Shown here piece after piece: positions 4,309 to 61,857 of a stretch of DNA of 64,000 nt. The notes beneath the pieces are model-generated. The model was not told the DNA's origin. It saw only the letters and a list, made by a program, of their open reading frames with translations, and ran no database searches. Location of the stretch: assembly GCA_016220165.1 (NCBI GenBank), contig JACRIE010000042.1, positions 20,379-84,378 on the forward strand. The letters are read 5' to 3'. A program made the position numbers and the translations under genes. The stretch comes from Candidatus Peregrinibacteria bacterium. Its GTDB lineage: Bacteria; Patescibacteriota; Gracilibacteria; UM-FILTER-43-11; JACRIE01. The first letter of the stretch is position 1. Every line of letters starts with the position of its first letter.

Positions 4309-4370
4309 AATTGGAATTCCTTATTCGAATCTTGTAATCTTTGAATAAATAATCTTGTAATAATAAACCT

Positions 4371-9677: not shown

Positions 9678-9930
9678 GTAGGGCCTCGCTGACCTGATTC
9701 GAAGGCGGTAAAAATAATGTACCGTGAACCAGACGAAGCCAAACAGAGAATGGTGACTAATCATCTCGAACCTGGGCTGAGTTTTGGTTTTTGTTTTCGT
9801 CCTTCCAAGACGTACTCTTTGGCGTTGTGTTTGTATTTTTGTTTTTATATAAAAATGACACAACAGAATAAATGGGGTTGAGCTTATACGAGTCAGGTAA
9901 AGCTGCATCACCAAGCCTAGGGGCTGGATA

Positions 9931-10030
9931 GCGACGAGTGACAAGTGACGAGTTAATCTTTCTCGTCTCTCGTCACTATTTCTTCGTCTCTCGTCACTAT
10001 TTCTTCGTCTCTCGTCACACGTCACTATAC
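9931..10030. repeat. CGTCAC-family repeat: inverted arm plus about 2.8 tandem 21-nt units
   Basis: GCGACGAGTGACAAGTGACGAG (9931-9952) is followed by TCGTCTCTCGTCACTATTTCT repeated at 9963, 9984 and 10005. It is enclosed by the stem AAGCCTAGGGGC / GGCCTCTAGGCTT. Confidence 0.85.
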
Positions 10031-10214: not shown

Positions 10215-10352
10215 GTTATTTGTATAGACTAAAAATAATACTATGTCTTAATACGATTTGCGTTTGAATTTATCGCTAATCGATCAACGCTAATCGCCAA
10301 TCGAATCTGTTGGAAATTGTAAACTAATCTTGTAATCTTGTAATAATTAATA

Positions 10353-13179: not shown

Positions 13180-13348
13180 AGTCCGTAGTCAGTGGCAACG
13201 TAGTCCGTAGTTAAATTCAAATAAGAACTACAGACTACCAAACTACTGACTACGGACTAATTATACTTTATTTTCCAGCCAAAAAATGCTATAATATTTA
13301 GATTAAAGTTAATTTAAACCTTAAATCCTTAACCTTAAATCCTGCATC

Positions 13349-16235: not shown

Positions 16236-16278
16236 CAATTACTAATTTCCAATTTCTAATATCCAACAAAAAAATCTA

Positions 16279-16662
16279 ATGCCTAACGAAGAAAAAAAGA
16301 AAATCTTCGATCTGACGGAACGAACAGCGATATTTGGTGAAAATATTATCGAATTTGCTAAAAAAATACCTAAAAATGCCATCACGCTCCCATTGATCAG
16401 TCAATTGGTTAGGGCAGGAACGAGCGTTGGAGCAAATTATTGCGAAGCGGATTGCGCCGAATCGAGGAAAGATTTCGAACATAAATTAGGAATATGCAAA
16501 AAAGAATCGAAAGAAACAAAACACTGGCTGCGCATGACAGCAAAAGCAGTTCCGGAATTGCTGACAGGGGCACAGGAACTCGCCAAAGAATCAAACGAAT
16601 TGCAATTAATCTTTATAGCCATCATCAAAAAATCAAAATTAAATTCCATCTTAAAAGATTGA
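16279..16662 (+). CDS. four-helix-bundle protein (23S rRNA-IVS / Avd-like family)
   Basis: LVRAGTSVGANYCEA and KLGICKKESKETKHWLRM match the TIGR02436-type four-helix-bundle family. Flanked by inverted AATTACTAATTTC / TTAGAAATTAGTAATT words. Confidence 0.7.
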   Translation: MPNEEKKKIFDLTERTAIFGENIIEFAKKIPKNAITLPLISQLVRAGTSVGANYCEADCAESRKDFEHKLGICKKESKETKHWLRMTAKAVPELLTGAQELAKESNELQLIFIAIIKKSKLNSILKD

Positions 16663-16728
16663 TTTTTTTAGACATTAAAATTTTGCATTCATTTTGTTAG
16701 AAATTAGTAATTAGACATTCTGCATTTT

Positions 16729-19440: not shown

Positions 19441-20609
19441 TACACCACTCTCGCCCACTTCCTTTTCCCGGCCTGAATCACCATGCCGGCTTTGAGGCGA
19501 ATGATGGCTTTGGGATCGGTCGCTTTTGAGTTGTCGATTTTCACGCCGCCCTGCTCGATGAGACGCCGGCCTTCCGATTTCGTTTCGGCCAGCTTGCAGA
19601 GGAGGAGGAGGTCCGTGAGTTCACGGTCGCCGTTAAGTTTGAATTCGGGAATTTCATCCGGCAACCCCTTCTTCTGAAATATTTCGATAAACTCCCTCTC
19701 GGCCGCGTCAGCCTCTGGCTTGGAGTGATACATCGTGACGAGTTCGCGCGCCAAGCGCACCTTGGCATCGCGCGGGTTTCCGCCGGATTTCATATGGGCA
19801 TCGATCGCATCGATTTCTTTGAGCGACACGTCCGTGCACAGGATGAAATACTTGATGATTACATTGTCCGCCATGGACATAATCTTGCCGAACATGTCCC
19901 CGGGCGCGTCCGTGAGATTAATCGTGTTGTTATATGTCTTGCTCATCTTTCGGCCGTCCGTGCCTTCAATGAGCGGTGTCGTCAGCACGAATTTTTCCTT
20001 ATTTTTAAGCGCGCGAAGCAATGTGCGTCCGGCCATCATGTTGAAGAGTTGGTCGTTCCCGCCGATCTCGCAATCCACCTCGAGCATCACGGAATCATAC
20101 CCCTGCATCAGAGGATAAAGGAACTCATTTGGGGACAGCGGTTCTTCCGCCTTCAGACGCTTCTGGAACATGTCGCGCTGGAGCATTTGCTGGACTGTGA
20201 AATAACTGCCCAATTTCATGACCTCATCGAGCCTCAATTTCTCAAGCCATTCGTGGTTATAAACGATCTTAACTTTGTTGAAATCAAGGACTTTGGCGGC
20301 CTGTTTCTTGTACGTTTTGAAATTCTCCTCCACCTGCTCGCGTGTGAGCGGCTGGCGCGTCGCGTCGCGGCCCGTCGGGTCGCCGATCATGGCCGTGTAA
20401 CTGCCGATCAAAAAAATCACGTGATGCCCGTGCTCGGCAAAATCGCGGAGTTTGCGAAGTGGAATTGTGTGCCCCAAATGCAGCTGCGAGCCGGTCGGGT
20501 CAATGCCGAAATACACGCGCAATTTCTTGCCGGAAGCGATTCTCGCATGAGCGAGTTCCTGCGGCATCAGTTGTTCCACCCCGCGGGTAAGTAGTTCGTT
20601 GATTTGCAT
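19440..20609 (-). CDS. tyrS: tyrosine--tRNA ligase
   Basis: Class I motifs HLGH and KMSKT; C-terminal S4-like domain (GRRLIEQGGVKIDN). Confidence 0.9.
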   Translation of the reverse strand: MQINELLTRGVEQLMPQELAHARIASGKKLRVYFGIDPTGSQLHLGHTIPLRKLRDFAEHGHHVIFLIGSYTAMIGDPTGRDATRQPLTREQVEENFKTYKKQAAKVLDFNKVKIVYNHEWLEKLRLDEVMKLGSYFTVQQMLQRDMFQKRLKAEEPLSPNEFLYPLMQGYDSVMLEVDCEIGGNDQLFNMMAGRTLLRALKNKEKFVLTTPLIEGTDGRKMSKTYNNTINLTDAPGDMFGKIMSMADNVIIKYFILCTDVSLKEIDAIDAHMKSGGNPRDAKVRLARELVTMYHSKPEADAAEREFIEIFQKKGLPDEIPEFKLNGDRELTDLLLLCKLAETKSEGRRLIEQGGVKIDNSKATDPKAIIRLKAGMVIQAGKRKWARVV

Positions 20610-20710
20610 GATTATTTATTACAAGATTCATTATTACAAGATTACAAAATTAAATACAAATCTTAATGATCTTAGTAATCTTGTAATTTTGAATAAATAA
20701 TCTTGTAATA

Positions 20711-20738
20711 AAGGAATAATCGCGCGCGATTATTCCTT
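20711..20738 (-). terminator. 28-nt perfect palindrome overlapping the nadK stop
   Basis: AAGGAATAATCGCGCGCGATTATTCCTT; the nadK stop (20730-20732) lies inside it. Confidence 0.45.
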
Positions 20739-21590
20739 TGGTTTCTCCCCCCAATGTAACTTGTGCCGTAATGTCTCAAAATAGCTTTCTCCCGGCAGGC
20801 GCACGAAAGTGACCACAGGCCCCTTCTGGATGCGAATACGATCGCCTTTCCGAACCTCGTAACTATTTTGGCCGTCCAAAGTGACAATCATCCGTTTTTC
20901 ATCGCTCTCGATCACAATGTCGATCTTTTTATGATCCGGAATCACGATCGGTTTCTGCATGAAACTATGAGGACAAATCGGCGTCACGATGAAGGCCGCG
21001 AGCGTGGGATAAACAATCGGTCCGCCCGCCGCGAGGTTATAGGCCGTGGAACCCGTGGGCGTGGCCACCATGAGCCCATCCGCGTGATACGTGGTGAGCC
21101 GGCGGCCGTTCACCTGCGCGCGCAAACTGATAAGGCGGGCGAGGGTCCCCTGAGAAATCACGGCTTCATTGAGCGCCTGATAATGTCCAATTTCTTTTTT
21201 ACCGCGATGCACCGTTACCTCCAGCATACAGCGGCGATCCAAGGTGTAATCCCCGGCAAAAATCCTTTCGAGCGTAGCGATCGCGCGCGCCGGAGGCACG
21301 TCCGAAATAAACCCAAGCGTGCCGATATTGATACCCAAAATACGCGTGTCGAAATGGCGCAGTTTCCGCGCCACGCGGAGGATCGTCCCGTCACCGCCAA
21401 GCGTAATGATCATATCCACTTTAGTGCGTCCGATATGAAATTTTTTGAACGTTTTTAATTCCAACATCTCAGCCACGCGATCCTCCAAATAAATCTCCTT
21501 TTTAAGATCTTTGAGGTATTCCCACAATTGCCGGACAATTGGCTGACAGAATTCCGATTCCCGACGGATCACGAGACCAATGCTTTCCAT
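20730..21590 (-). CDS. nadK: NAD(+) kinase
   Basis: GGDGT motif and overall PpnK pattern (DMIITLGGDGTILR, TPTGSTAYNLAAGGPIV). Confidence 0.85.
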   Translation of the reverse strand: MESIGLVIRRESEFCQPIVRQLWEYLKDLKKEIYLEDRVAEMLELKTFKKFHIGRTKVDMIITLGGDGTILRVARKLRHFDTRILGINIGTLGFISDVPPARAIATLERIFAGDYTLDRRCMLEVTVHRGKKEIGHYQALNEAVISQGTLARLISLRAQVNGRRLTTYHADGLMVATPTGSTAYNLAAGGPIVYPTLAAFIVTPICPHSFMQKPIVIPDHKKIDIVIESDEKRMIVTLDGQNSYEVRKGDRIRIQKGPVVTFVRLPGESYFETLRHKLHWGEKPKE

Positions 21591-21613
21591 AAAATTTTAT
21601 GTGATAAAATTTT
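21591..21613 (-). promoter_or_regulatory. 23-nt A/T palindrome abutting the nadK ATG
   Basis: Minus strand reads AAAATTTTATCACATAAAATTTT followed directly by ATG. Confidence 0.6.
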
Positions 21614-21730
21614 AAATTTCTAATATCCAATTTCTAATGTCTAACAAAATTTCTAAATTTCTAAATTTTCAATCTTTAATCATTGGACATTGAATTTTTT
21701 TGTTAGAAATTAGAAATTAGAAATTGGATA

Positions 21731-22891
21731 TTAAGGATTCTGGATCACTTCCAAAATCCTCTGCGCCGTCTTCCCCCAGCTAAAATTCTTCACCTGCTCA
21801 AAGCCTTTACTTCGCAATTCTTTCCAATGGGATTCGTTATCCAGCACTTGCGTAATGCCGTCCGCGATGTCGATCGGATCCGTGGGATCGATATAGTGCA
21901 CCGCGTCCATACCCAACTCGGGGATCGAGGAGACCTTGGAGGCCACCACGGGCGCGCCGCTCTGCATCGCTTCTAAAACAGGAAGGCCAAACCCTTCATA
22001 AAAAGAGGGAAAAAGAAAAAGGGTGGCGCCCTGCATCAGGGCGACAAGTTCCTTCTCCGGTAGATATTCCAAAAAAGTGACACGATCCTGTAGTCCCAGC
22101 TTCTGGACTATCGCCTTAATCTTATTGAAATAAGCGCCCTGTTTTCCGCAAATCACAAGGCGATACTTTTTTTGATTGGCCGGACTCAATAGGTGATACG
22201 CTCTCAGGACGCCTATGACGTTCTTGCGCGGTTCCAAAGCGCCCGTCATCATTAAATAAGGCTCTTCAATCCCATACTGTTTTTGAAGACGTCGAATCTC
22301 CTCCGGAGGCACGGAGCCAAAAAAGATTTCCTGGACGCCCGCGTACACCACCGTAATCTTGTCTTGGAGCGGAAGATCCGGATATTGATTGAGCAGATCA
22401 CGGCGGGTATAAGAAGAAACCGTAAAAATCCATCGGGATTTTTGAACCGCCTTCTTGAGGGTGAGCTTTTCAATCCACTGGGCTTTTTTCTGATGCCGGA
22501 TCCCTGGTTTGAAAGCGATCATGTCATGAACCGCCAGTCCCACATGAAGGCGTCGCGGATCGTGCAAAAAAGGAACGATATAACTTTCAGTGGCTACCAA
22601 CGTGTCAACGCGTTCCCTGAGAAGCGAACGATAAAAACGCCAATGCCACAAGGGGCCCCATCCGCGCAGACGAACCACTCTGACATTCGGACGGTTCTGA
22701 TAAAGAGGAGGGCATTCAGCATTGGTATACAGCAAATACTCATTCGTGGTGTCGTGAAAGAGGATACTTTTGAGGACATTCGCCGTCCATACACCCTTAC
22801 CCCCCTTTTCACCCGCGATACCGCGGATATCAAACGCGATTTTCATAAAAATTGTGAATACTGAGCTTGTCGAAGGGTCAAAATTCGCCAA
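21731..22891 (-). CDS. glycosyltransferase family 4 (GT-B fold)
   Basis: C-terminal EGFGLPVLEAMQSGAPVVAS motif. Confidence 0.8.
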   Translation of the reverse strand: MANFDPSTSSVFTIFMKIAFDIRGIAGEKGGKGVWTANVLKSILFHDTTNEYLLYTNAECPPLYQNRPNVRVVRLRGWGPLWHWRFYRSLLRERVDTLVATESYIVPFLHDPRRLHVGLAVHDMIAFKPGIRHQKKAQWIEKLTLKKAVQKSRWIFTVSSYTRRDLLNQYPDLPLQDKITVVYAGVQEIFFGSVPPEEIRRLQKQYGIEEPYLMMTGALEPRKNVIGVLRAYHLLSPANQKKYRLVICGKQGAYFNKIKAIVQKLGLQDRVTFLEYLPEKELVALMQGATLFLFPSFYEGFGLPVLEAMQSGAPVVASKVSSIPELGMDAVHYIDPTDPIDIADGITQVLDNESHWKELRSKGFEQVKNFSWGKTAQRILEVIQNP

Positions 22892-23008
22892 AACGGATTA
22901 TATCATATATAATACGCTCAACACATGACACATGACATCTGACAATAAGCCAAAAAATGTATTTCAAAAAGTTAGGTGTCAAATGTCAAATGTCAATTGT
23001 CAAGTGTT

Positions 23009-23031
23009 AAAATTTTATCTGATAAAATTTT
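23009..23031 (+). promoter_or_regulatory. 23-nt A/T palindrome 3 nt upstream of ATG
   Basis: AAAATTTTATCTGATAAAATTTT, then act, then ATG. Confidence 0.6.
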
Positions 23032-23034
23032 ACT

Positions 23035-24135
23035 ATGAGCCTAAGACGCATTAAACACAGCCTTTTGCGTTTAAGCGCGGAAGAAAAAATAGTGGGAATT
23101 GGATGTCTCGTCACGCTCTTAAGCCTTTTTTTTCCTTGGTATTCGACCACCTTTTTATCCAGCCAAAAAAGCCTCATTGAAAATGGGCTTTCCGGAGATT
23201 TGGGGGTGATCGGGTTTGTCGTTTTTATTATGACGTTGATCGCGGGGCTATATCTGGTAGCGGAGAATCTCCGCGTTCGTCTCCCTTATTTTGGTCTCCC
23301 CAAACAAAAAATTGTTTTGTTTATCATGGGAGAAGCCTCTTTCCTGATGCTCCTCCTGATCGCGGTCTACACCAAGCGCTCCCTGGGTTTCACGAACGCG
23401 GAACTGCGATTCGGAATTTATTCCGCCTTTATAGGAACCATCGCCAGCACGCTCGCCATGATCAGCGCGCTGCAAAAACGACAACGGGAAGAAACGCGCG
23501 CTTTTTTTGATCATCCGGAAGAATCCGATCCCGTAGAGACGCAAAATCTTGCGTCTAAAAAACCCGAACCCCTATTGGATCCCGAACCGCAAAATGACAA
23601 CATTTCTTCCGTAGAAACGCGACATGTCGCGTCTTCTGATGTCCCTCACAAAATCCCCACGGCGCAACTCGACGAAAACGAATTGGAAGAAGATCTATTC
23701 CGTGTAAAAAAGCCCACCGAAACCATTAGTCGAAGTGCCAGCGCTGAGCGTAGTCGAAGTACCAGTACTGAGCGTAGTCGAAGTATTGACATTGAATCTT
23801 ATAAAGAACGTTACCAAGTTCCGGAAACAGATGTAGGGGCTGGACATGTCCAGCCCGAAAGATCCGACATTGTAGAGACGCGCCTGCCCACCGTAGCGGG
23901 AGCGAAGGAGGGCCAAGGCGCGTCTGAAAAAGAAACCACCGTATCTCCCACCGCCACCGACGACAACGAGGAATTCTTCACGCTCAAAGAATCTGAACCC
24001 CTGGAAGAAATGCCCATAAACGAGACAGAGAACGACAAAGAAAAACCGATTAGGATTGAAGAAATCCGAATCGATGAAATTAAAGAAAAAATCAGCGACA
24101 AAAAAGGATCCCCTGGCGGATTCTACGAAGATTAA
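23035..24135 (+). CDS. hypothetical membrane protein with acidic, repeat-derived C-terminal tail
   Basis: Four TM helices in the first 150 aa. The tail contains three VETx..AS palindrome-encoded segments and a tandem ERSRS repeat. Confidence 0.6.
   Translation: MSLRRIKHSLLRLSAEEKIVGIGCLVTLLSLFFPWYSTTFLSSQKSLIENGLSGDLGVIGFVVFIMTLIAGLYLVAENLRVRLPYFGLPKQKIVLFIMGEASFLMLLLIAVYTKRSLGFTNAELRFGIYSAFIGTIASTLAMISALQKRQREETRAFFDHPEESDPVETQNLASKKPEPLLDPEPQNDNISSVETRHVASSDVPHKIPTAQLDENELEEDLFRVKKPTETISRSASAERSRSTSTERSRSIDIESYKERYQVPETDVGAGHVQPERSDIVETRLPTVAGAKEGQGASEKETTVSPTATDDNEEFFTLKESEPLEEMPINETENDKEKPIRIEEIRIDEIKEKISDKKGSPGGFYED
23537..23556. repeat. GAGACGC-family palindrome in CDS
   Basis: AGACGCAAaatcTTGCGTCT encodes (V)ETQNLAS. 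Confidence 0.75.
23613..23637. repeat. GAGACGC-family palindrome in CDS
   Basis: AGAAACGCGACATGTCGCGTCTTCT encodes (V)ETRHVASS. Confidence 0.7.
23876..23925. repeat. GAGACGCG-family palindrome with 32-nt interior, in CDS
   Basis: AGACGCGCC...GGCGCGTCT encodes (V)ETRLPTVAGAKEGQGAS. Confidence 0.7.
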
Positions 24136-24245
24136 TTTAGCGGGTAGCAATTAGCGGCTAGTAACTAGTCAGATTCTGGCTAACCGCTAAAAGCTAACCG
24201 CTAACCGCTAAATTTACCTTGTCATCCTTAAAAAATAATTCTAAA

Positions 24246-25532: not shown

Positions 25533-25550
25533 GAAATACGTAACTTAAAC

Positions 25551-25680
25551 CCGTAATTTATAATTGGTAACTAGCGACCTTCCCGCCTTAGCGGGATACC
25601 TACAAGTTACAAATTATTCATAATCCCGCTGAGGCGGGACAAATTACGCATCCAATTGTTACAAGTTACGTATTATTAAT
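25551..25680 (+). repeat. about 125-nt structured element in the recA leader (copy 1 of 2)
   Basis: Shares order and sequence with the reverse complement of 42033-42155. The core TAGCGACCTTCCCGCCTTAGCGGGATACCTACAAGTTAC (25572-25610) is 36/39 identical to the other copy. Confidence 0.7.
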
Positions 25681-25687
25681 TAATTTT

Positions 25688-29245: not shown

Positions 29246-30214
29246 ATGAATAAGCGAGAAATGCTCCTCCAAAGGCAAGGCTGGGCCGACGCCCTCATTG
29301 AATTGGGAACGAAAGACCCGCGGGTCGTCGTCCTGGACGCGGACCTGGCCAAATCCACGCTCACCTGCCAGTTCAGGGATAAATTCCCGAAGCGCTTTTT
29401 TGACATGGGAATCGCGGAACAAAACATGGTGAATACCGCCGGCGGACTCTCGCTGACAGGCCTCATACCCTTCGTCACAACGTATGGCGTGTTCGTGTCC
29501 GGGCGCGCGTGGGAGCAGATCCGCACGAGCGTGTGCTACGGAAAACTGAACGTCAAATTCGGCGGCGCCCACGGCGGCATTTCCGTGGGGCCTGATGGCG
29601 CCACGCACCAGGCGCTCGAAGAAATCTCTATCATGCGGGTACTGCCGGAAATGACAGTTCTCGTGCCCGCGGATTATCACGAAACCAAAAAGGCGGTACT
29701 GGCCTCCGCGTCGATCGACGGTCCGGTTTACATCCGCTTCGGGCGCAAAAAAACGCCCGTGGTAACCGCTAAAGACACGCCCTTTGAAGTAGGGAAAGCC
29801 ATTATCATGAAGCAAGGCACGGATCTCACGATCATTGCCTGCGGTACCATGGTAGCCTCTGCGCTCGACACCGCGGAACGATTAGAAAAAGAAGGCGTTT
29901 CCGCTGAAGTCATCAATCTACATACCATTAAACCGATTGACCGGGACGCGATTGTCAGCTCCGTCCGAAAAACTGGTTGCCTTGTGACCGCAGAAGAGCA
30001 CCAGTTGGCGGGCGGAATGGGAAGCGCTGTCCTTGAAGTATTGGCTGAAGAAATGCCAGTTCCTGTCGAACGCGTCGGCATCCGGGACACCTTTGGCGAG
30101 TCCGGAACGCCGCAGGAACTGATGGAAAAATACGGCATCACCTCCAAAGAGATCTTCGAAAAAGCCCATTCAGCGCTTTCGCGCAAAAAAATAGACATTA
30201 GAAGCCTGTCCTGA
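29246..30214 (+). CDS. transketolase, C-terminal subunit
   Basis: FFDMGIAEQNMV and GPDGATHQALEEISIMRVLP. Confidence 0.85.
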   Translation: MNKREMLLQRQGWADALIELGTKDPRVVVLDADLAKSTLTCQFRDKFPKRFFDMGIAEQNMVNTAGGLSLTGLIPFVTTYGVFVSGRAWEQIRTSVCYGKLNVKFGGAHGGISVGPDGATHQALEEISIMRVLPEMTVLVPADYHETKKAVLASASIDGPVYIRFGRKKTPVVTAKDTPFEVGKAIIMKQGTDLTIIACGTMVASALDTAERLEKEGVSAEVINLHTIKPIDRDAIVSSVRKTGCLVTAEEHQLAGGMGSAVLEVLAEEMPVPVERVGIRDTFGESGTPQELMEKYGITSKEIFEKAHSALSRKKIDIRSLS

Positions 30215-30269
30215 ATCCAGCTTGTCCTGAATTACATTAAAGGATTGAAGGATTAGGATTTAGAAATTT

Positions 30270-30292
30270 AAAATTTTATCAAATAAAATTTT
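30270..30292 (+). promoter_or_regulatory. 23-nt A/T palindrome abutting ATG
   Basis: AAAATTTTATCAAATAAAATTTT followed directly by ATG. Confidence 0.6.
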
Positions 30293-31529: not shown

Positions 31530-32906
31530 ATGGAGCAAATTGGCAAAATTCCACCGCATAATAAAGAGGCGGAACAGTCCGTTCTGGGATCTATCCTGCT
31601 GGACAAAGACGCCCTCATTAAAATCGTTGACCTGATCACCAAGGTCGACTTTTATTATGAAATTCATGCCCTCATTTTCGAGGCCATGTCCGATCTATTC
31701 CGCCGTCACGACCCGATCGATATTCTCACGCTCACGAATCTATTGGAGGAGCGCGGTCAGCTGGAAACCATTGGAGGTCCTGCTTATTTGGCGGAACTGA
31801 CTTCGGCCGTTCCCACGGCCACGCACATCTTTAAGTACGCGCAAATCGTCAAAAATAAAGCTACGTTACGCCGTATGATCAGCGTGGGGCAGCGAATCAC
31901 GGGATTTGGTTTTAACGAAGAAGAGGAAATCGAACAATTATTAGAGCAAAGCGAAAAAGAAGTATTCAATATCTCTCAAACCTTTTTAAAAGATCGTTTT
32001 GTCCACGTTCGGGATGTTCTGGCCGCGCGCTACGAGGAACTGTCGGCCATCTACATGGCCGACGAGAAAGACCGGTTCAAGGGCGTTTCAAGCGGCTTCA
32101 AAAGCATCGACTTCCTCCTGTCCGGCCTTCAGCCCGCGGATCTGATCATCATTGCCGCGCGCCCTAGTATGGGAAAAACCGCGCTGGCGCTCTCCATTGT
32201 CCAAAAAATATCCATCGAAAGTTCTCAGCGAAAAACCGTGGGGATCTTTTCCCTAGAAATGTCCCGCGAACAGCTTGTGGACCGCATGTTCTGCTCTTTG
32301 CTCGGGATCGATTCCTCCAAAATGCAGAAAGGACAGCTCACGGATCGGGATTTTCAGAACATGGGCCCCATCATGGACAAATTGAACCAGGCACCGATCT
32401 TTATCGACGATTCCGTGACATCTTCAATCGTGGAACTTCGAGCCAAGGCCCGCCGCTTACAAATGGAACATGGATTGGATCTGCTGGTGGTTGACTATCT
32501 CCAGCTTATGACCACAGGCAATCCGGCCTATCAGGCCAATCGTGTTCAGGAAATTTCCGAAATTTCCCGCTCGCTCAAATCCCTGGGCCGTGAATTGCAT
32601 GTGCCCGTGATTGCTTTATCTCAGCTCTCGCGCGCGGTAGAACTACGCAACCCGAAAATTCCGCAGCTTTCCGATCTTCGTGAGTCCGGCTCCATCGAAC
32701 AAGACGCTGATGTGGTGATGATGCTCTACCGGAGAGATTATTACGAAGAAAATCTCCCCGAAGATGAAATCGGCATCACCGATATTTATGTGCGCAAACA
32801 CCGTAATGGCCCGACAGGAAGAGCTCAATTACGCTTCGATAAATCTCAAATGCGCTTTTATGACATCGACAAACGCTTCCATCCCGAAGAGATAGGCGCC
32901 GACTAA
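31530..32906 (+). CDS. dnaB: replicative DNA helicase DnaB
   Basis: PPHNKEAEQSVLGSILLD, Walker A ARPSMGKTA, LVVDYLQLM and SQLSRAVE. Confidence 0.9.
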   Translation: MEQIGKIPPHNKEAEQSVLGSILLDKDALIKIVDLITKVDFYYEIHALIFEAMSDLFRRHDPIDILTLTNLLEERGQLETIGGPAYLAELTSAVPTATHIFKYAQIVKNKATLRRMISVGQRITGFGFNEEEEIEQLLEQSEKEVFNISQTFLKDRFVHVRDVLAARYEELSAIYMADEKDRFKGVSSGFKSIDFLLSGLQPADLIIIAARPSMGKTALALSIVQKISIESSQRKTVGIFSLEMSREQLVDRMFCSLLGIDSSKMQKGQLTDRDFQNMGPIMDKLNQAPIFIDDSVTSSIVELRAKARRLQMEHGLDLLVVDYLQLMTTGNPAYQANRVQEISEISRSLKSLGRELHVPVIALSQLSRAVELRNPKIPQLSDLRESGSIEQDADVVMMLYRRDYYEENLPEDEIGITDIYVRKHRNGPTGRAQLRFDKSQMRFYDIDKRFHPEEIGAD

Positions 32907-32990
32907 CATTTTACACCTGACATATGATTCACACCTGACGCCTGACTTTTAAGATTCTGGTCAGATGTCATGTGTCAGATGTCATGTGTA

Positions 32991-33013
32991 AAAATTTTAT
33001 CTTATAAAATTTT
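32991..33013 (+). promoter_or_regulatory. 23-nt A/T palindrome abutting the mraY ATG
   Basis: AAAATTTTATCTTATAAAATTTT followed directly by ATG. Confidence 0.6.
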
Positions 33014-34060
33014 ATGACCCACATCCCTCAACTCATTTGGATTTTCAGCTGGACGATTTTTTGCTTTTTAATCACGCTTCTCCTTACTCCGCTCTTTTTG
33101 AGATTGGTCGACAGGCTCCATCTTAAAAAAACAATCCGTGATACAACAATGGATGGAAAAGCCGCTACTATTTTTCGCGAATTGCATCTCAAAAAAACAG
33201 GGACTCCAACCATGGGGGGCGTAATCATATGGGGAGCGATAATAATGGTTATTCTTTTTTCGCGATTGCTGGCCCTGATGGGAATCATCCAAAAATCACT
33301 CCTGGATCGCGGTGAGGTCTATTTGCCGCTCTTCACACTGCTGGCCGTGGGAATTCTGGGGGCCGTCGACGATCTTCTGAACATTAAGGGGGTGGGGGGG
33401 CAAAAAGGCATGAACGCCGTTCGAAAATTCGCGTGGCTGACCCTTTTCGGGCTCCTGGGCGCCGCCTGGTTTTACTTTAAACTGGATTTTTCCAGTATCC
33501 ATATCCCGCGCGTGGGCGATTTTGAGATCGGCTGGCTCTACATTCCCCTCTTCGTTCTGGTGATCGTCTCGACTGCCAACGCCGTGAATTTTACGGACGG
33601 GCTGGACGGCCTCGCGGGGGGACTCCTCATCCTGGCGTTCGCGACCTTCGGAGCCATTGCCTACGCCAAAGGCATGCCGACACTGGCCGCGTTTTGCGGC
33701 GTTGTGATTGGAGCATTGCTCGCCTTTCTTTGGCATAACATTCCGCCGGCGTTGTTTTATATGGGCGACACGGGCGCGTTGGCGCTTGGCGCGACTCTCG
33801 GGGTCATCGCGATGATGACAAATTCATTAGTAATTCTGATCATCGCGGGCATTCTTTTCGTCGTGGAAACGATCTCCGTCATCCTACAGTTGACATGGAA
33901 AAAGTGTTTTCATCGAAAACTCTTCCTCATCGCGCCGCTCCATCACCATTTTGAAAAAAAGGGCTGGGGCGAAGCCAAAATCACCATGCGATTTTGGATT
34001 ATCGGCGCCATGGCCTCCGTCATAGGCCTGATCATCGGTCTCATTGGCATGGGGCATTAA
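33014..34060 (+). CDS. mraY: phospho-N-acetylmuramoyl-pentapeptide transferase
   Basis: Polytopic membrane protein with NAVNFTDGLDGLA, MGDTGALALG and APLHHHFE. Confidence 0.9.
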   Translation: MTHIPQLIWIFSWTIFCFLITLLLTPLFLRLVDRLHLKKTIRDTTMDGKAATIFRELHLKKTGTPTMGGVIIWGAIIMVILFSRLLALMGIIQKSLLDRGEVYLPLFTLLAVGILGAVDDLLNIKGVGGQKGMNAVRKFAWLTLFGLLGAAWFYFKLDFSSIHIPRVGDFEIGWLYIPLFVLVIVSTANAVNFTDGLDGLAGGLLILAFATFGAIAYAKGMPTLAAFCGVVIGALLAFLWHNIPPALFYMGDTGALALGATLGVIAMMTNSLVILIIAGILFVVETISVILQLTWKKCFHRKLFLIAPLHHHFEKKGWGEAKITMRFWIIGAMASVIGLIIGLIGMGH

Positions 34061-34101: not shown

Positions 34102-34205
34102 AAAAAGAAAAAAATAAAATAAATTCCATTTTTGTAAAGTTATTTTAAAATTCAGGAGCCTTTCCTGGATTGTTTTTTTGGCTGTTTAATGCTAAAATAA
34201 TAGGA

Positions 34206-36185
34206 ATGAATAACGAATCAGTTGTCTTCAACGAAGCGGAAAAGAAAAGCGCAAAAAAACCTGGTTTTTGGGCGCTCCTAAAGGCTGGGCTTCTGGCGCG
34301 CCATCGCCAAGGAGCGAAGCCTGCTGCGTCAAACCCCTCAACGGCCGTCAAGGATCATCCTTTAAACGTGGATAAACCTGAAGCGACCGCGACTGCGGGA
34401 AACGATGAAAAAATAGATGTCAAAGCGATCAAAGAAGCTGAAAAAACATACCGTTTGGGCCTGGCCACCATCAAAGACCTGATCAGTCCTTCCTCGTTGG
34501 ACTTCAGCTACAACCAATTCCGGCTCGGCGGGCTCTATGCCAAGAGCTTTTTTGTATACACCTATCCGCGCTATCTGGACGTCAACTGGCTCTCTCCGAT
34601 CATCAATTTTGACGTCACCATGGACATTTCCATGTTCGTCTATCCCGCGAGCAGCGCGATCATCATGAAATTCCTCAAAAACAAGGTGGCCCAAATTGAA
34701 TCCACCATGCACATCGAACAGGAAAAGGGGCTTGTGAGCGATCCCGCATTGGAAACCGCCCTTCAGGATGCCGAAGAATTGCGCCGGAATATTCAGCGCG
34801 GCGAGGAAAAATTTTTCCAGTACGCTCTCTACTTCACGATCTACGCCGAAAATGAAGAAAAGCTAAAGAAGGCGGTCACTCGCCTCGAAAGCGCCCTGGG
34901 GGGACGACTCGTCCTGACTAAAAGCGCGGATTTACAGATGGAACACGCGTTCAATTCCTGCCTGCCTTTGGCCATGGATGAATTGGAAGTGTATCGCAAT
35001 ATGAACACCAATCCCCTGTCGACCACGTTCCCCTTCAGTTCTACGGATCTTACCTCCGGCGAAGGAATTTTGTATGGAATCAACCGTCACAACGACAGTT
35101 TGATTATTTTTGATCGGTTCTCATTGGAAAACGCCAACTCAGTCATTTTCGCCAAATCCGGCGCGGGTAAATCATACGCCATCAAACTCGAAATTCTGCG
35201 TTCCATGATGCTCGGCACCGACGTTATCGTGATCGATCCGGAAAACGAATACGAAATGCTGGCCAACACGGTCGGCGGTACCTATTTGCGGGTTTCCCTC
35301 AATTCCGAACAGCGCATCAATCCTTTTGATCTTCCAACCCCCATGCAGGGAGAAGATGAAAAACCGGGCGATTTACTACGCAGTAATATCATTTCGCTTC
35401 ATGGACTTCTCAACTTGATGCTCGGAAAATTGACGCCCGAAGAAGAAGGATTGATGGACAAGGCTTTAATTGATACCTACGCCCTAAAAGGCGTCACGAT
35501 GGACACGCCGAATCCCGGGGCCATGACGCCGCCCACCATGGAGGATCTTTACGATATTCTTACGAATATCCGAGGTGCTGAAAATCTGGCGCAGCGCTTG
35601 CAAAAGTATACGGTTGGAACCTTCTCGGGAATCTTCAATAAACCCACGAATGTCGATCTAAAATCAGGACTCGTGGTATTCTGCATTCGGGATCTCGAGG
35701 ATATGCTGCGCCCCATCGCCACATATATCATTTTGAATTACATCTGGAATCGCGTCCGTTCCGAACTCAAAAAGCGCCTCCTGGTCATCGATGAGGCCTG
35801 GTCCATGATGCAACATGAGGACAGTGCCCGATTCCTTTATGGCCTCGTAAAACGCGCCCGCAAATACTATTTGGGAATTACCACGGTCACTCAGGACGTG
35901 GAGGATTTCATCCGATCCGATTACGGCAAGCCGATCATCACAAACTCATCCATGCAGTTGCTTTTGAAGCAATCGCCCGGATCCGTCGACGGTCTTGTAA
36001 AGCTATTCAACCTCACCGAAGGAGAAAAGTACCTTCTCCTCAACTCAGACATTGGACAGGGACTTTTTTTCGCGGGCTTGAAGCATGTGGCCATTCAAAT
36101 CATCGCGAGCTACAACGAAGATCGCGTCATTACCACAAACCCCCAGGAAATTCTCCGCCGCCAGCAGGGCGAACTGTCAAAATAA
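34206..36185 (+). CDS. VirB4/TraC-like (DUF87-type) secretion/conjugation ATPase
   Basis: Walker A AKSGAGKSYAIK, Walker B LLVIDEAWSM, and overall VirB4-like layout. Confidence 0.7.
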   Translation: MNNESVVFNEAEKKSAKKPGFWALLKAGLLARHRQGAKPAASNPSTAVKDHPLNVDKPEATATAGNDEKIDVKAIKEAEKTYRLGLATIKDLISPSSLDFSYNQFRLGGLYAKSFFVYTYPRYLDVNWLSPIINFDVTMDISMFVYPASSAIIMKFLKNKVAQIESTMHIEQEKGLVSDPALETALQDAEELRRNIQRGEEKFFQYALYFTIYAENEEKLKKAVTRLESALGGRLVLTKSADLQMEHAFNSCLPLAMDELEVYRNMNTNPLSTTFPFSSTDLTSGEGILYGINRHNDSLIIFDRFSLENANSVIFAKSGAGKSYAIKLEILRSMMLGTDVIVIDPENEYEMLANTVGGTYLRVSLNSEQRINPFDLPTPMQGEDEKPGDLLRSNIISLHGLLNLMLGKLTPEEEGLMDKALIDTYALKGVTMDTPNPGAMTPPTMEDLYDILTNIRGAENLAQRLQKYTVGTFSGIFNKPTNVDLKSGLVVFCIRDLEDMLRPIATYIILNYIWNRVRSELKKRLLVIDEAWSMMQHEDSARFLYGLVKRARKYYLGITTVTQDVEDFIRSDYGKPIITNSSMQLLLKQSPGSVDGLVKLFNLTEGEKYLLLNSDIGQGLFFAGLKHVAIQIIASYNEDRVITTNPQEILRRQQGELSK

Positions 36186-36660: not shown

Positions 36661-36695
36661 AAAAACCCTCCCCGCCTAGGCGGGGAGGGTTTTTT
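36661..36695. terminator. rho-independent terminator (bidirectional)
   Basis: AAAAA-CCCTCCCCGCC-ta-GGCGGGGAGGG-TTTTTT, between the RRM gene and the convergent tRNA-Glu. Confidence 0.85.
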
Positions 36696-36709
36696 AGTTT
36701 CTACTCCGT

Positions 36710-42032: not shown

Positions 42033-42155
42033 AATTTTAATACGTAATTTGTAATCACTAAGTGATCCCTTTGGGACTCGTAATTGGTAACTTGTAGGTA
42101 TCCCGCTTTGGCGGGATGGTCGCTAATTACAAGTTACAAATTACAAATTACGTAT
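42033..42155 (-). repeat. about 125-nt structured element (copy 2 of 2), in the glmS to DUF1361 spacer
   Basis: The reverse complement aligns end to end with 25551-25680. Core is at 42087-42125. Confidence 0.7.
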
Positions 42156-44051
42156 TTATTTTACAGTGACCGATTTCGCCAAATTCCGAGGCATGTCGGG
42201 ATCCAGTCCGCGAAGTACGCTCAGATAATAAGCCAGCAATTGAATTGGGATAATGTTGACGAGGGGCGACGCAACGCCCACATCGGGGACGTGGATCCAT
42301 TCGTCAAAAACATCATGTCGCTCCGGACTCACGCCGATAATATAGGCGCCGCGGGCTTTGAGTTCCATTGTGTTGCTGAGCACATCCTCGCGGACTTCAT
42401 CGTTCGCCACAAAGGCGATGCAGGGCGTCCCATGGCTGACAAGCGCGATGGGGCCGTGCTTGAGTTCGCCAGCCGCGAACCCCTCGGCATGAATATAGGA
42501 AACTTCCTGGATCTTGATCGCCGATTCCAAGGCCATGGGGTAATTTTCAGCTTTGCCGATGATATATAAATTATTATGCTCGCGGATGAGTTGCGCGATT
42601 TCTTTAATATAAACCAGGAAGCGCGGATTGAGCATATCATTGATCTTTGAGGCCACTTCCGCCAGGAGCCGCCGGCCTTCCTGAAGGCGTTCTGTCATGG
42701 CGTAAGCGATGAGAAGCAAGAGCGTCATCTGGGATGTGGCCGCTTTAGTGGATGCCACCGCCTTCTCCGGACCGGCGTTGATCAAAAGCGAGGTGTCCGA
42801 TTGCCGCGCGATAGTGCTGCCAGCCACGTTGACAATCGAAAGCACGCGGGCTTTCTTCTTTTTCGCAGCCTCCATGGCTTCCAGCACATCCGCAGTTTCG
42901 CCGCTTTGGGAAATCACGACGAGCAAACTCTCGGGGCGCAGAAAATGATGATACACGGGAAATTCAGAAGCCGGAGCGTAATTCACATGACGCTGGGCGA
43001 TGATCGAAAAAAAGTATTCGCCGGCCATGCACACCTTGCCGGCCGTGCCGCAACCGGAAAAAAAACATCCGCGCGATTCGCGGATCGTCTGGGCGATTTT
43101 GAGGATATCTTCGTCACTCTGATCAATCGCGCGAAGAATCGTCGCCTTCTGTTCCATGATCTCCTTGAGCATGTAGTGATCATATTCCCCTTTCTCGGCC
43201 GATTCCGCTTTCCAGTCGATATTAACGAGACGTTTTTGGATCGGCTGACTTGTTTCAATATTTAAAAAATGCAGCGACGAGTGGTCAGTGACGAATTTTT
43301 CTTTCTCGTCTCTCGCCTGCCCCGAGCTTGGTCGAGAGGTCTCTCGTCTCTTGCTACTCGTCACTCGCCTGCCCCGAGCTTGGTCGAGGGGTCTCTCGTC
43401 ACTAGCCTCCCCATCTATGATCACCATCTCATTATCATCCAGATACATCACCTCCTGCGTGTATTCAAGAAACGCGGGAATATCCGACGCCACAAAATGT
43501 TCGTCTTGACCGATACCAACGATCAAAGGGCATCCGCACCGGGCCGCGATCAGCTGATGGGTGCCCACATTGATCGCCACAATGGCGTAACGCCCCTTAA
43601 GGCGGCGAAGAGCGGCTAAGACTGCCTCCTGAAAATTCATGGTTTTCCGATAACGCGCGATGAGCTGCGGAATCACCTCGGTATCCGTCTGAGAAATAAA
43701 ATACTCACGCCCCAATTCGTCGCGGATTTCCTTATAATTCTCAATAATCCCGTTCTGAACGACCGCCACGGTTTTGTCGCCGCTGAAATGAGGATGCGCG
43801 TTGATATCCGTGACGCCGCCATGCGTGGCCCAGCGCGTGTGACCGATCACCAAAGAGGCGGAGGTATTCTTAAAAATCTTCGTATCGATCCCGGAAATCT
43901 TGCCCACATGCTTCTCGACAAAAAGCTCACCGCCCCTGTCTGCGGCCACTCCCCACGAATCGTATCCGCGGTATTCCAATTTTTTAAGCCCGTCAACCAC
44001 GAGTTCGAGACCATTCGTCCGCGGCCCTATGTAACCGAAAATTCCGCACAT
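42156..44051 (-). CDS. glmS: glutamine--fructose-6-phosphate aminotransferase (isomerizing), with a 44-aa repeat-derived insertion
   Basis: N-terminal MCGIFGY nucleophile, two SIS domains, C-terminal PRNLAKSVTVK. Confidence 0.9.
   Translation of the reverse strand: MCGIFGYIGPRTNGLELVVDGLKKLEYRGYDSWGVAADRGGELFVEKHVGKISGIDTKIFKNTSASLVIGHTRWATHGGVTDINAHPHFSGDKTVAVVQNGIIENYKEIRDELGREYFISQTDTEVIPQLIARYRKTMNFQEAVLAALRRLKGRYAIVAINVGTHQLIAARCGCPLIVGIGQDEHFVASDIPAFLEYTQEVMYLDDNEMVIIDGEASDERPLDQARGRRVTSSKRRETSRPSSGQARDEKEKFVTDHSSLHFLNIETSQPIQKRLVNIDWKAESAEKGEYDHYMLKEIMEQKATILRAIDQSDEDILKIAQTIRESRGCFFSGCGTAGKVCMAGEYFFSIIAQRHVNYAPASEFPVYHHFLRPESLLVVISQSGETADVLEAMEAAKKKKARVLSIVNVAGSTIARQSDTSLLINAGPEKAVASTKAATSQMTLLLLIAYAMTERLQEGRRLLAEVASKINDMLNPRFLVYIKEIAQLIREHNNLYIIGKAENYPMALESAIKIQEVSYIHAEGFAAGELKHGPIALVSHGTPCIAFVANDEVREDVLSNTMELKARGAYIIGVSPERHDVFDEWIHVPDVGVASPLVNIIPIQLLAYYLSVLRGLDPDMPRNLAKSVTVK
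43275..43406. repeat. CGTCAC-family element, two tandem units plus inverted arm, in frame in glmS
   Basis: CTCGTCTCTCGCCTGCCCCGAGCTTGGTCGAGAGGTCTCTCGTC and CTCGTCACTCGCCTGCCCCGAGCTTGGTCGAGGGGTCTCTCGTCAC, preceded by CGACGAGTGGTCAGTGACGA. Confidence 0.85.
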
Positions 44052-44054
44052 AAT

Positions 44055-44077
44055 AAAATTTTATTTCATAAAATTTT
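44055..44077 (-). promoter_or_regulatory. 23-nt A/T palindrome 3 nt upstream of the glmS ATG
   Basis: Minus strand reads AAAATTTTATGAAATAAAATTTT, then att, then ATG. Confidence 0.6.
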
Positions 44078-44140
44078 CACACCTGACAACTGACATCTGA
44101 CACCTGACTTTTCTTTTTTATTTTAATTTTTTGTCAGATG

Positions 44141-45088
44141 TTATGTGTCATGTGTCAGATGTTCTTTATACCACTGCACCGTCTCCTTCAGCCCTCTATC
44201 AAAATCAATTTCAGGCTTCCATCCGAGCTCCTTCCTTATTTTACTGGAATCGACGGCGTAGCGCACGTCATGCCCCAAGCGATCCGTCACGAACTCGATG
44301 CGGTCCTCGGAAAGACCAAGGAGTCGAATGATCGCCTTGGCGACATCCAGATTGATGTGCTCATTGCCCGCGCCCACATTATAAACTTCACCCAGTCGCC
44401 CCGTATGCAGGACTAAATCGATCGCGCGGCAATGGTCGGAAACATGGAGCCAGTCGCGGATATTCTGGCCTTTACCGTACACGGGAACGGTCTTGCCCTC
44501 CATGAGCCGCTTCACAAAAAACGGAATGATTTTTTCTGGAAACTGGCGCGGTCCGTAGTTATTCGCGCATCGGGAAATGACTGCGGGCAGTCCGTACGTG
44601 CGCTGGTACGCGCTAATGAGGAGATCCGCCGCCGCCTTCGAGGCGGCGTAGGGCGAACTCGGCTTCAGTCGATCGTTTTCAGTGAAATGCCCCTTCACGA
44701 TATCGCCGTACACTTCATCCGTGGAGACCTGAACGTAGCGTGGATGCTTGTGCTTCAATGCCGCCTCCAAAAGCGCCTGGGTGCCCAAAATATTGGTTTG
44801 CAAAAATACCTCCGGCCCCGTGATGGAGCGATCCACATGCGTCTCCGCGGCGAAATTCACGATCACGTCCGCCTCCCCGGCTAGCGAATCAACCAGCTTC
44901 CGATCCGCGATATCCCCCTGTACGAAACGATAATTCGGATGACCTACGACCTCTTTGAGGTTGTCCGGATTCCCCGCGTACGTCAATTTATCCAAATTGA
45001 TGATTGGATAATCCGGATGTTCCTTAACCAAATAATGAATAAAGTTGGAACCGATGAACCCAGCTCCACCCGTGATAAGAAGCCTCAT
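44141..45088 (-). CDS. rfbB: dTDP-glucose 4,6-dehydratase
   Basis: TGGAGFIGSNF and YAASKAA (YxxxK); overall RmlB pattern. The last six codons (HLTHDT) lie in an intergenic-type hairpin arm. Confidence 0.85.
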   Translation of the reverse strand: MRLLITGGAGFIGSNFIHYLVKEHPDYPIINLDKLTYAGNPDNLKEVVGHPNYRFVQGDIADRKLVDSLAGEADVIVNFAAETHVDRSITGPEVFLQTNILGTQALLEAALKHKHPRYVQVSTDEVYGDIVKGHFTENDRLKPSSPYAASKAAADLLISAYQRTYGLPAVISRCANNYGPRQFPEKIIPFFVKRLMEGKTVPVYGKGQNIRDWLHVSDHCRAIDLVLHTGRLGEVYNVGAGNEHINLDVAKAIIRLLGLSEDRIEFVTDRLGHDVRYAVDSSKIRKELGWKPEIDFDRGLKETVQWYKEHLTHDT

Positions 45089-47986: not shown

Positions 47987-48038
47987 TCGCCGCTTTTATT
48001 AACGTTTATTCCCGCGACCGGCTGGCCCAGGACTTTTT

Positions 48039-48088
48039 CTCGTCTCTCGTCACTCGTCACTAGTCACTCGTCTCTCGTCACTCGTCTC
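48039..48088. repeat. CGTCAC-family repeat covering the VirD4-like gene stop
   Basis: CTCGTCTCTCGTCACTCGTCACTAGTCACTCGTCTCTCGTCACTCGTCTC supplies the last residues RRVTRDE and the stop. Confidence 0.8.
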
Positions 48089-50787: not shown

Positions 50788-50831
50788 TTCTATTTTTTAA
50801 GTTCGTGGGTATTGTATTACGTTTTTTGCAT

Positions 50832-50890
50832 CTCGTCACTCGCAACTCGCCTGTCCGTCCGAAGCGTCCGCGCGAAGGCAGGTCACTTCT
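50832..50890. repeat. CGTCAC-family repeat (variant hairpin core) between the VirD4-like start and the nfo stop
   Basis: CTCGTCACTCGCAACTCGCCTGTCCGTCCGAAGCGTCCGCGCGAAGGCAGGTCACTTCT; the nfo stop (50883-50885) lies inside it. Confidence 0.75.
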
Positions 50891-51710: not shown

Positions 51711-51809
51711 CAGTTACCAGTTACAAGTTACGCATCTATTATAATACTACAAAAAATTTGCCACGTTTAAGCAACATTTGATATAGTGACTCCCTAAAAT
51801 AAATTTTCT

Positions 51810-61751: not shown

Positions 61752-61857
61752 ATTGAATACGATTAGCGATTAATGATTAGCGATTCGCGACCGAATTTTC
61801 TTGCGCTAATCGATCAACGCTAATCTCAAATCGAAATAAAAGCGTGGCAATTTTAAA

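Follow-up and report, generated by a model that had tools for sequence, protein, structure and literature searches.

A 64,000-nucleotide stretch of a Candidatus Peregrinibacteria contig (JACRIE010000042.1; hereafter the window, 64 kb with about 49% G+C) carries, next to the start of five genes, a 23-base palindrome whose arms consist only of A and T, AAAATTTTAT-N3-ATAAAATTTT. This element is real and highly non-random, it is conserved in the Gracilibacteria class and outside it, and it is most likely an undescribed gene-start expression signal whose mechanism is not settled. The 23-mer forms the conserved core of a cassette in which a long hairpin comes first and which lies immediately 5' of a gene. 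As far as our searches show, it is described neither in Rfam nor in the literature: queries on the motif, on promoters of the Candidate Phyla Radiation (CPR) and on leaderless genes returned nothing on this element, and a search of the window against Rfam 15 found only two tRNAs at gathering score and, over the cassettes, nothing at E <= 1 except one 19.6-bit match at chance level. CPR bacteria, or Patescibacteria, form a large and almost uncultured share of bacterial diversity in which transcription and translation start are barely known, and an element that fixes where about 8% of the window's genes begin and recurs in the Gracilibacteria class, Omnitrophota and Endomicrobia offers a concrete entry point.

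An exact palindrome at gene starts

The original prediction, made from the window alone, had reported five copies of the palindrome at 0, 3, 0, 0 and 3 nt from a start codon, differing only in the central triplet (CAC, CTG, CAA, CTT and GAA), and a pattern scan confirmed all of them (Table 1). No copy is expected, dinucleotide-preserving shuffles giving 0.00 matches, and with the window at about 49% G+C a 20-base match of A and T only is far from chance. A relaxed search of the window with up to three mismatches gave no further copies, and the mismatch spectrum runs from five copies at zero through none at one to four to three at five, where 1.25 are expected. The palindrome is a discrete class and has no fuzzy consensus. 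The base directly 3' of it is A in all five copies, and in three of them this A lengthens the stem by one T...A pair (T30269-A30293 in copy 3).

The five downstream genes share no pathway, as the original prediction had stated. Pfam and NCBIfam confirmed NAD kinase, MraY (TIGR00445, above cut-off), GlmS (TIGR01135, above cut-off) and a class I/II aminotransferase, and gave no family match for the membrane protein downstream of copy 2. Two starts are anchored by the proteins themselves: GlmS begins with MCGIFGY, which fixes its ATG, as the catalytic Cys has to stand at residue 2, and the profile alignment of NadK begins at residue 2. In all five copies the palindrome supplies an in-frame TAA three to four codons upstream of the ATG, so no upstream extension of these reading frames is possible. 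The distance between palindrome and ATG is a multiple of three in 5/5 window copies and in 14 of 25 protein-gene instances among the matches listed, which is above one third; an in-frame TAA just before the start codon could affect ribosomes arriving from upstream as they terminate.

Relatives were searched by pattern scan with one genome per species. The matches fell mostly in A/T-rich genomes, where chance matches are expected, and only those in which a hairpin, the palindrome and a gene start follow one another in this order were counted as the same element. By this measure the element recurs in other genomes of the Gracilibacteria class, in one metagenome-assembled genome (MAG) of the Endomicrobiaceae and, before tRNA-Ser, in Omnitrophota, which answers in the affirmative whether it is conserved in relatives. 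Two MAGs, L015 (Patescibacteria) and L054 (Peribacteria), are tied to the window by gene order and 45-60% protein identity. Several genes of the window also turn up in the assembly of sequencing run SRR12113407. Orientation and the order of hairpin, palindrome and gene start, the last at 0-7 nt, were fixed in every one of the roughly 25 clade instances among the matches listed, and the palindrome core is kept between genomes whose orthologous proteins are only 45-70% identical. One of the contributing MAGs, CALCYP01, needs TGA read as Gly (code 25) for ychF, rlmE and other genes (L056, 5086 onward), with YchF then reading MKIGIVGLPNVGKSTLF. In three Gracilibacteria/Absconditabacteria MAGs (L036, L115, L094) the yidC start ATG TTG TGA ATG is kept.

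The layout is not confined to protein genes. Among the matches listed, in four Omnitrophota-type contigs the palindrome follows a GC-rich hairpin and stands 1-2 nt before tRNA-Ser, and a match on a contig classed as viral lies at a locus of this type. The ARAGORN call for this tRNA is one base too long; when the standard 7-bp acceptor stem GGAGAGG/CCTCTCC and discriminator G are applied, position +1 is a G that follows a pyrimidine. In one of these loci (L073) an upstream open reading frame (ORF) ends inside the GC hairpin; that it is tadA-like is a guess from its C-terminal residues alone.

Table 1. Coordinates and loci of the palindrome, the adjoining hairpins and related features. Positions without a locus prefix refer to the window; energies are minimum free energies of the folded stretch, with z-scores; spacing is the distance from the palindrome to the gene.
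Feature	Position or locus	Strand	Gene or context	Details
Palindrome copy 1	21591..21613	minus	nadK, 20730-21590	centre CAC (gene strand); 0 nt to ATG
Palindrome copy 2	23009..23031	plus	366-aa protein without family match, ATG at 23035	centre CTG; 3 nt (ACT) to ATG
Palindrome copy 3	30270..30292	plus	aminotransferase, ATG at 30293	centre CAA; 0 nt to ATG
Palindrome copy 4	32991..33013	plus	mraY, ATG at 33014	AAAATTTTAT-CTT-ATAAAATTTT; 0 nt to ATG
Palindrome copy 5	44055..44077	minus	glmS, 42156-44051	centre GAA (gene strand); 3 nt (ATT) to ATG
Long TTAGAAAT-word hairpin	21614..21739	minus	between GT4 glycosyltransferase gene and copy 1	inverted repeats; -30.6 kcal/mol, z = -4.0
TGACA/TGTCA word hairpin	22921..23007	plus	divergent intergenic region, no co-directional gene upstream (copy 2)	
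Hairpin, 3' side ending in word TTAGAAATTT	30208..30259	plus	overlaps stop codon of transketolase C-terminal gene	-20.5 kcal/mol, z = -2.0
TGACA/TGTCA-family word hairpin	32912..32990	plus	5 nt past dnaB stop codon, abuts copy 4	part of the alignment of TGACA/TGTCA-type cassettes; 32900-33025 folds at -34.5 kcal/mol, z = -5.4
TGACA/TGTCA word hairpin	44079..44162	minus	between epimerase/dehydratase gene and copy 5	inverted repeat; -36.1 kcal/mol, z = -6.7
Sigma-70-like promoter candidate	22885..22913	plus	upstream of copy 2 hairpin	TCGCCA-N17-TATAAT; consensus match only
Intergenic word hairpins or single arms	4309-4370, 9930-10012, 10270-10352, 13179-13259, 16236-16728, 20604-20712, 24128-24220, 25549-25687, 42033-42155, 47987-48063, 50788-50882, 51711-51735, 61752-61857			words ATTACAAGATT, TAGTCCG, TAGCGG/GCTAATCG, GTAACTTGTAAC, CTCGTCAC, TTAGAAAT
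Patescibacteria MAG JAHJBZ01	L015, L114		rplT, L25	spacing 5, 6 nt
Peregrinibacteria	L052		499-aa ORF	spacing 4 nt
Peribacteria	L054, L105, L013		rplT, rpmI, others	spacing 3-5 nt
Gracilibacteria/Absconditabacteria	L036, L115, L094		yidC	spacing 3-4 nt
MAG CALCYP01, 30% G+C	L056, L081, L088, L089, L111		ychF, rlmE, others	spacing 3-7 nt
Endomicrobiaceae MAG	L024		434-aa ORF with TTG start, resembling the penicillin-binding protein of the window	spacing 3 nt
Omnitrophota-type loci	L034 1328-1441, L073 2949-3062, L103 1687-1798, L200 13570-13681		tRNA-Ser	centre TTC; TGC in L103
glmS upstream region	L156		glmS	AAAATTTTTAT-TTC-ATAAAAATTTT-ct-ATG; 11-nt arms
glmS upstream region	L119		glmS	like L156, with G as first right-arm base; U.G on sense strand
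glmS upstream region	L124		glmS	AAAATTTTT-TTC-AAAAATTTT-ttt-ATG; 9-nt arms
glmS upstream region	L120, L122, L132, L133		glmS	word hairpin alone, no palindrome
glmS upstream region	L121, L148		glmS	neither hairpin nor palindrome; 11-25 nt spacer
Clostridial intron matches	L041 6194-7526; also L006, L012, L020, L053, L069, L079, L084, L097, L099, L107, L110		group II intron	

Adjoining hairpins and evolution of the cassette

Read in gene orientation, every window copy is preceded by a long imperfect hairpin whose 3' arm ends 0-1 nt before the palindrome, with free energies of -20 to -36 kcal/mol for the folded stretches and z-scores of -2.0 to -6.7. These hairpins had been predicted and their folds bear them out; the further proposal that each is the terminator of the preceding gene fails as a general rule, since two or three cassettes have a divergent neighbour (copy 2 at 23009, L013 and L089), no T-run directly follows the stem, AAAA coming before the T-run, and canonical terminators exist elsewhere. 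The window holds a textbook bidirectional terminator at 36661-36696, A5-CCCTCCCCGCC-TAG-GGCGGGGAGGG-T6, with a GC hairpin; lacking the T-run, the hairpins that adjoin the palindromes are a class apart from it. The palindrome itself is rejected as a terminator, with -2.5 kcal/mol and no G-C pairs.

Hairpins of this kind are not restricted to the palindrome. Many intergenic regions of the window are filled by long hairpins with arms of repeated short words (among them ACATCTGACA/TGTCA, TTAGAAAT, ATTACAAGATT, TAGCGG/GCTAATCG, TAGTCCG), which we call word hairpins and which lie between co-directional genes, between convergent genes or against start codons that have no palindrome; at 13179/13180 a word hairpin touches the ATG directly. 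The same word families occur in distant genomes of the Gracilibacteria class, for instance TAATCTTGTAAT in L114 and CTATTAGCTAGCGACT in CALCYP01.

The history of the cassette can be followed at glmS, for which 80 loci were taken from metagenomes, the close relatives having 66-83% GlmS identity. Among these orthologues the palindrome is facultative, and where it is present its arms are 9, 10 or 11 nt long and have changed symmetrically. Among the matches listed, the spacing of the arms, or half-sites, is fixed in more than 25 copies and different in three glmS orthologues. A further symmetric change is the G-C apex variant AAAATTTTGC-AAA-GCAAAATTTT of L111, which also adjoins a word hairpin. 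In L015, near-identical hairpin-palindrome cassettes precede both rpmI and rplT, the rpmI copy with a T.G variant, and the TGACA/TGTCA-type cassettes of the window, L156 and L015 align with one another across different genes. Hairpin and palindrome propagate as one cassette. A sister clade (L125, L127, L128, L129, L130; 50-58% G+C, about 60% GlmS identity) instead has TGGTAGGAT or TGGTAAGAT, 7 nt and ATG or GTG before glmS, which has the form of a classic extended -10 at leaderless spacing.

What the element may do

Our tentative preference, held at somewhat short of even confidence, is that the cassette is a compact promoter module without a -35 element that gives rise to leaderless or near-leaderless RNAs. 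TAAAAT in the gene-proximal arm would serve as the -10 hexamer, the A/T tracts upstream would help RNA polymerase, and transcription would begin at the first purine past the T-run, which coincides with the ATG (or tRNA position +1) or is no more than a few nucleotides from it. The products would be leaderless or near-leaderless RNAs in a lineage devoid of Shine-Dalgarno sites, and the adjoining hairpin would insulate the unit from the upstream gene.

This proposal is based on the observation that TAAAAT occupies palindrome positions 15-20 in all copies and conforms to the -10 pattern TAnnnT. In the two window copies at 3 nt, the A of the ATG is the seventh base after TAAAAT and stands in a T-A-T context (pyrimidine-purine-pyrimidine, YRY); position 7 is the canonical start distance and YRY the start element (PMC12641261). 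In about 29 instances among the matches listed, the gene's 5' end lay 0 nt from the palindrome in three, 1 nt in three, 2 nt in three, 3 nt in eight, 4 nt in three, 5 nt in five, 6 nt in three and 7 nt in one, so that the commonest spacing, 3 nt, places the first base of the gene at position 7 after TAAAAT. The gene-strand centre is strand-specific, reading TTC nine times against GAA twice and being otherwise mostly pyrimidine-rich among the matches listed. A purely translational role is excluded at the Omnitrophota-type loci because the palindrome there precedes a tRNA. Several further observations count for a promoter. In phyla that use leaders the palindrome lies at ordinary leader distances: in L047 it is 5 nt after tRNA-Gly, and 65 nt separate it from a downstream gene that has an AAGGAG Shine-Dalgarno site; in two MAGs of Saccharibacteria, where it overlaps the stop codon of ychF, rpsF begins about 110 nt further on and a helix starts one base after the palindrome. 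The downstream genes are housekeeping genes, often highly expressed (rplT, rpmI, L25, yidC, ychF, rlmE, tRNA-Ser, glmS, mraY). The palindrome behaves as an add-on module, facultative at glmS and duplicating with its hairpin in L015.

The gene starts of this genome also call for such a signal. GGAG, GAGG or AGGA at -22 to -4 was found in 0/42 ATG genes, the five palindrome genes left out, and these five have no Shine-Dalgarno site either. This upholds, and extends to the other genes, the claim that no Shine-Dalgarno sequence fits between element and ATG. By this count the genome does not use Shine-Dalgarno pairing, and its starts need another start-adjacent signal. The 30 bases upstream of the 42 starts are about 78% A/T and 5-14% G; at -11 the frequency of A is 0.60, and at -15 that of T is 0.57. 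The lineage is often without ribosomal protein bS21 (PMC9297842). As a ribosome-binding site of the Shine-Dalgarno type the palindrome itself is rejected, having no G in a genome without such sites.

Several points weigh against the promoter. Three of the five window copies, those at 0 nt, put the A of the ATG at position 4, outside the usual 6-10, and do not fit. In these copies, transcripts begun at position 7 would be without the start codon. No -35 element was found 16-18 bp away in the window copies, the best being TAGAAA (4/6) in copies 1 and 3 (21591 and 30270); nothing -35-like stands at the right spacing in the three TGTCA-type copies, and there is no TGn extension (no TG at -15/-14). 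The window has ordinary promoters, TTTACA-N16-TAGAAT 16 nt upstream of tRNA-Glu and TTGACA-N17-TAAACT near 1190, with one sigma-70-like candidate upstream of the copy 2 hairpin. Graded variants, expected of a promoter class, are missing at one to four mismatches. The symmetry is left unexplained, for a -10 needs no palindrome and yet the symmetry survives changes in arm length. The apex variant of L111 turns T-12 into C, and for strictly leaderless initiation the spread of spacings, 0-7 nt, is large. Across 60 gene starts of the window, TANNNT showed no peak at the leaderless spacing d = 5-8; the palindrome copies at 0 nt, three in number, contribute to a small peak at d = 3. The promoter role offered in the original prediction remains the single likeliest reading, but only in part: it draws support from the good -10 and the canonical start of the 3-nt copies, and is left wanting by the 0-nt copies and the missing -35 and TGn. 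Two ways of completing it were discarded: the hairpin word TTGTCA as a -35 lies 20 bp from TAAAAT, which is too far, and the palindrome as an UP element agrees with 15/17 positions of the consensus from SELEX (systematic evolution of ligands by exponential enrichment), but it is wrongly placed, as a promoter 38 nt downstream would fall in the coding region.

Among the closest known systems are the promoters of leaderless genes in Actinobacteria, Deinococcus and Mollicutes (the last with TAAAAT), in which a -10 TANNNT lies about 6-7 nt before the start codon; the sister-clade glmS (TGGTAGGAT-N7-ATG in L125, L128 and L130) is an ordinary example of the type. The palindrome resembles them in having TAAAAT a few bases upstream, no Shine-Dalgarno site, a purine after the T-run and a commonest spacing equal to the canonical distance from -10 to start. 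Unlike them, it has 20 invariant palindromic bases without graded variants, three of five copies too close at 0 nt, no TANNNT peak across the window's gene starts and a long hairpin that always precedes. If the promoter reading is true, the element is a compact, portable expression signal and an aid to start-codon annotation in these genomes.

A serious rival, possible though less probable than the promoter, is that the palindrome works as RNA. Transcription would start upstream, and the element would form an AU-only stem-loop (10-bp A-U stem, 3-nt loop) in the intercistronic or 5' leader RNA, serving RNA processing or ribosome loading. In the first form an endoribonuclease may cut the transcript, leaving the upstream RNA with a protective 3' hairpin and the downstream gene with a very short leader; RN|WUU sites of the RNase E/G/Y type are present in both arms and may be cleaved, or RNase III or an RNase Z-like enzyme may act at the stem foot. 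In the second, a G-free, easily melted landing pad may allow ribosomes to load independently of a Shine-Dalgarno site. The way the element has evolved argues for RNA: symmetry is kept as arm length varies at glmS between 9, 10 and 11 nt, which is natural for a stem and awkward for protein half-sites; two independent loop-closing T.G variants (L119 glmS and L015 rpmI) amount to a U.G pair in the sense strand and to C.A in the antisense strand; and the double AT-to-GC change at the L111 apex keeps the pairing. Symmetric change may, however, arise mutationally, by template switching in quasi-palindromes, and is then no proof of selection. The sense-strand bias of the loop, UUC nine times against GAA twice among the matches listed, points the same way as the paired changes. 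Read-through transcripts are plausible because the word hairpins do not look like terminators, having no T-run where the hairpin at 36661-36696 has T6, and the promoter candidate upstream of copy 2 is placed to start transcription at the 5' foot of its hairpin. The lack of Shine-Dalgarno sites and the G-poor upstream regions suit loading, and the 0-nt spacing is unproblematic.

The isolated stem is weak, with only -2.5 kcal/mol, and no Rfam family matches it. A generic landing pad or single-strand cleavage site needs neither 20 invariant bases nor identity in distant phyla. Many window genes begin 0-10 nt past a word hairpin without any palindrome, which is thus not required as a spacer, ribosome loading cannot explain the tRNA-Ser copies, and the clustering at 3 nt has no obvious reason. 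Translational enhancers rich in A/U and bound by S1, and the Kozak-like contexts of Bacteroidota, are similar in offering a G-free A/U-rich tract at the start in a genome free of Shine-Dalgarno sites; they are compositional, whereas here the sequence is exact, precedes tRNA-Ser as well and lies 65-110 nt upstream in other phyla. The A-U hairpin raised in the original prediction hence gains from the symmetric arm changes, the two U.G variants and the loop-triplet bias, and loses by its weak stem. A processing signal of this kind, if true, would be a new way of making leaderless mRNAs.

Hairpin and palindrome might also act together as gene-by-gene punctuation in CPR bacteria without Shine-Dalgarno sites, insulating or ending the upstream RNA and setting the next 5' end at the first functional nucleotide, much as tRNAs punctuate mitochondrial transcripts; we regard this as unlikely. 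Two routes could lead there, an unusually close transcription start assisted by the hairpin or an endonucleolytic cut at the base of the AU stem. Translation would then start on leaderless mRNAs, and the Omnitrophota tRNA-Ser would need little or no 5' processing.

That a conserved dimeric DNA-binding protein uses the palindrome as its operator, acting as global regulator or as roadblock or insulator over the promoter and start region in the manner of CIRCE/HrcA or the Fur box, is a reading to which we give slightly less credit still. The perfect inverted repeat with its variable 3-bp centre recommends it, as do the 20 invariant bases, the lack of degenerate copies and the conservation across genomes, which are typical of a high-specificity protein site. 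The tract AAAATTTT has a narrow minor groove and an intrinsic bend, which also fits protein binding. Yet the distance between A4T4 blocks is 12, 15 or 16 bp among glmS orthologues, a bias of the centre triplet relative to gene direction is unexpected for a symmetric site, about 8% of the window genes carry the element, and the genes form no coherent regulon (ribosomal proteins, tRNA, cell wall, NAD kinase, YidC). CIRCE-type operators share the perfect inverted repeat, the short variable centre, conservation in distant lineages and a place between promoter region and start codon; they differ from the element in that its regulon is incoherent, its half-site spacing varies, its centre is strand-biased and it also precedes a tRNA gene. 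Of the operator suggested in the original prediction, the inverted repeat remains, weakened by the variable half-site spacing and the incoherent regulon.

Least probable of all is that the cassette is a repeat of little or no function, selfish or driven by mutation, which multiplies through duplication or template switching and is kept symmetric by quasi-palindrome correction without selection, as the near-identical cassettes before rpmI and rplT in L015, the alignment of TGACA/TGTCA-word cassettes across genes and genomes, the facultative presence at glmS and the occurrence of the same 23-mer within other repeats (one a family in Bacteroidota, the other a clostridial group II intron) might suggest; the fixed orientation and position in about 25 clade instances among the matches listed are not expected of random insertion, the surroundings of the cassettes showed neither target-site duplications nor terminal repeats, and the core is conserved between genomes with orthologues only 45-70% identical. 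The cassette does resemble repetitive extragenic palindromic (REP) sequences and bacterial interspersed mosaic elements (BIME), Correia/nemis elements, enterobacterial repetitive intergenic consensus (ERIC) sequences and 'mobile promoters' in being multi-copy, intergenic, hairpin-forming, placed between co-directional genes, facultative and duplicated as a unit, and some families of the REP, Correia or ERIC type supply promoters or RNase III sites. It differs from REP-type repeats in that its arms consist of variable short words, only the 23-bp palindrome is constant and its orientation is tied to the gene start. As for hallmarks of REP sequences and miniature inverted-repeat transposable elements, no target duplication or transposase link was seen, transposases not having been searched for.

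The same 23-mer in other contexts and neighbouring features

Taken across phyla, the pattern matches are not one family, as they include A/T-rich chance matches, group II intron copies and longer repeats. In A/T-rich MAGs of Clostridia the palindrome lies between the flanks CGAGTAGAGTAG ... CATCCCCTCTCACACC and adjoins a group II intron reverse-transcriptase ORF with a YADD motif (Table 1); in most cases a contig end is no more than 40 nt away, and the palindrome is for this reason taken to be part of a multi-copy intron. In a Bacteroidota MAG, JBCCRX01 (L022, L030, L049, L057, L071, L082, L087, L116), and in L025 it belongs to the repeat CCTTTTTTGA-palindrome-TCAAAAAAGG, where it is the centre of a longer palindrome, and a second hairpin, GGACAGAGAGAAAAAATC...GATTTTTTCTCTCTGTCC, adjoins. 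Matches in Saprospiraceae are CACATAG-word hairpins and were not counted as the same element. Nine of ten matches on viral contigs are probably due to chance, the contigs having 20-36% G+C and no such layout (five are giant-virus MAGs); the tenth is the tRNA-Ser locus mentioned above.

Within the window, the -10 of the promoter candidate upstream of copy 2 is contained in another A/T palindrome, ATTATAT-CAT-ATATAAT at 22897-22913, which offers TATAAT on each strand and may thus serve as a pair of divergent promoters, one for the GT4 gene and one for that of the membrane protein. Directly downstream of mraY, at 34170-36185, lies a gene for a 671-aa TraG/VirB4-like P-loop ATPase (Pfam P-loop_TraG, TraC_F_IV and CagE_TrbE_VirB), an unexpected neighbour of a cell-wall gene in a small CPR genome.

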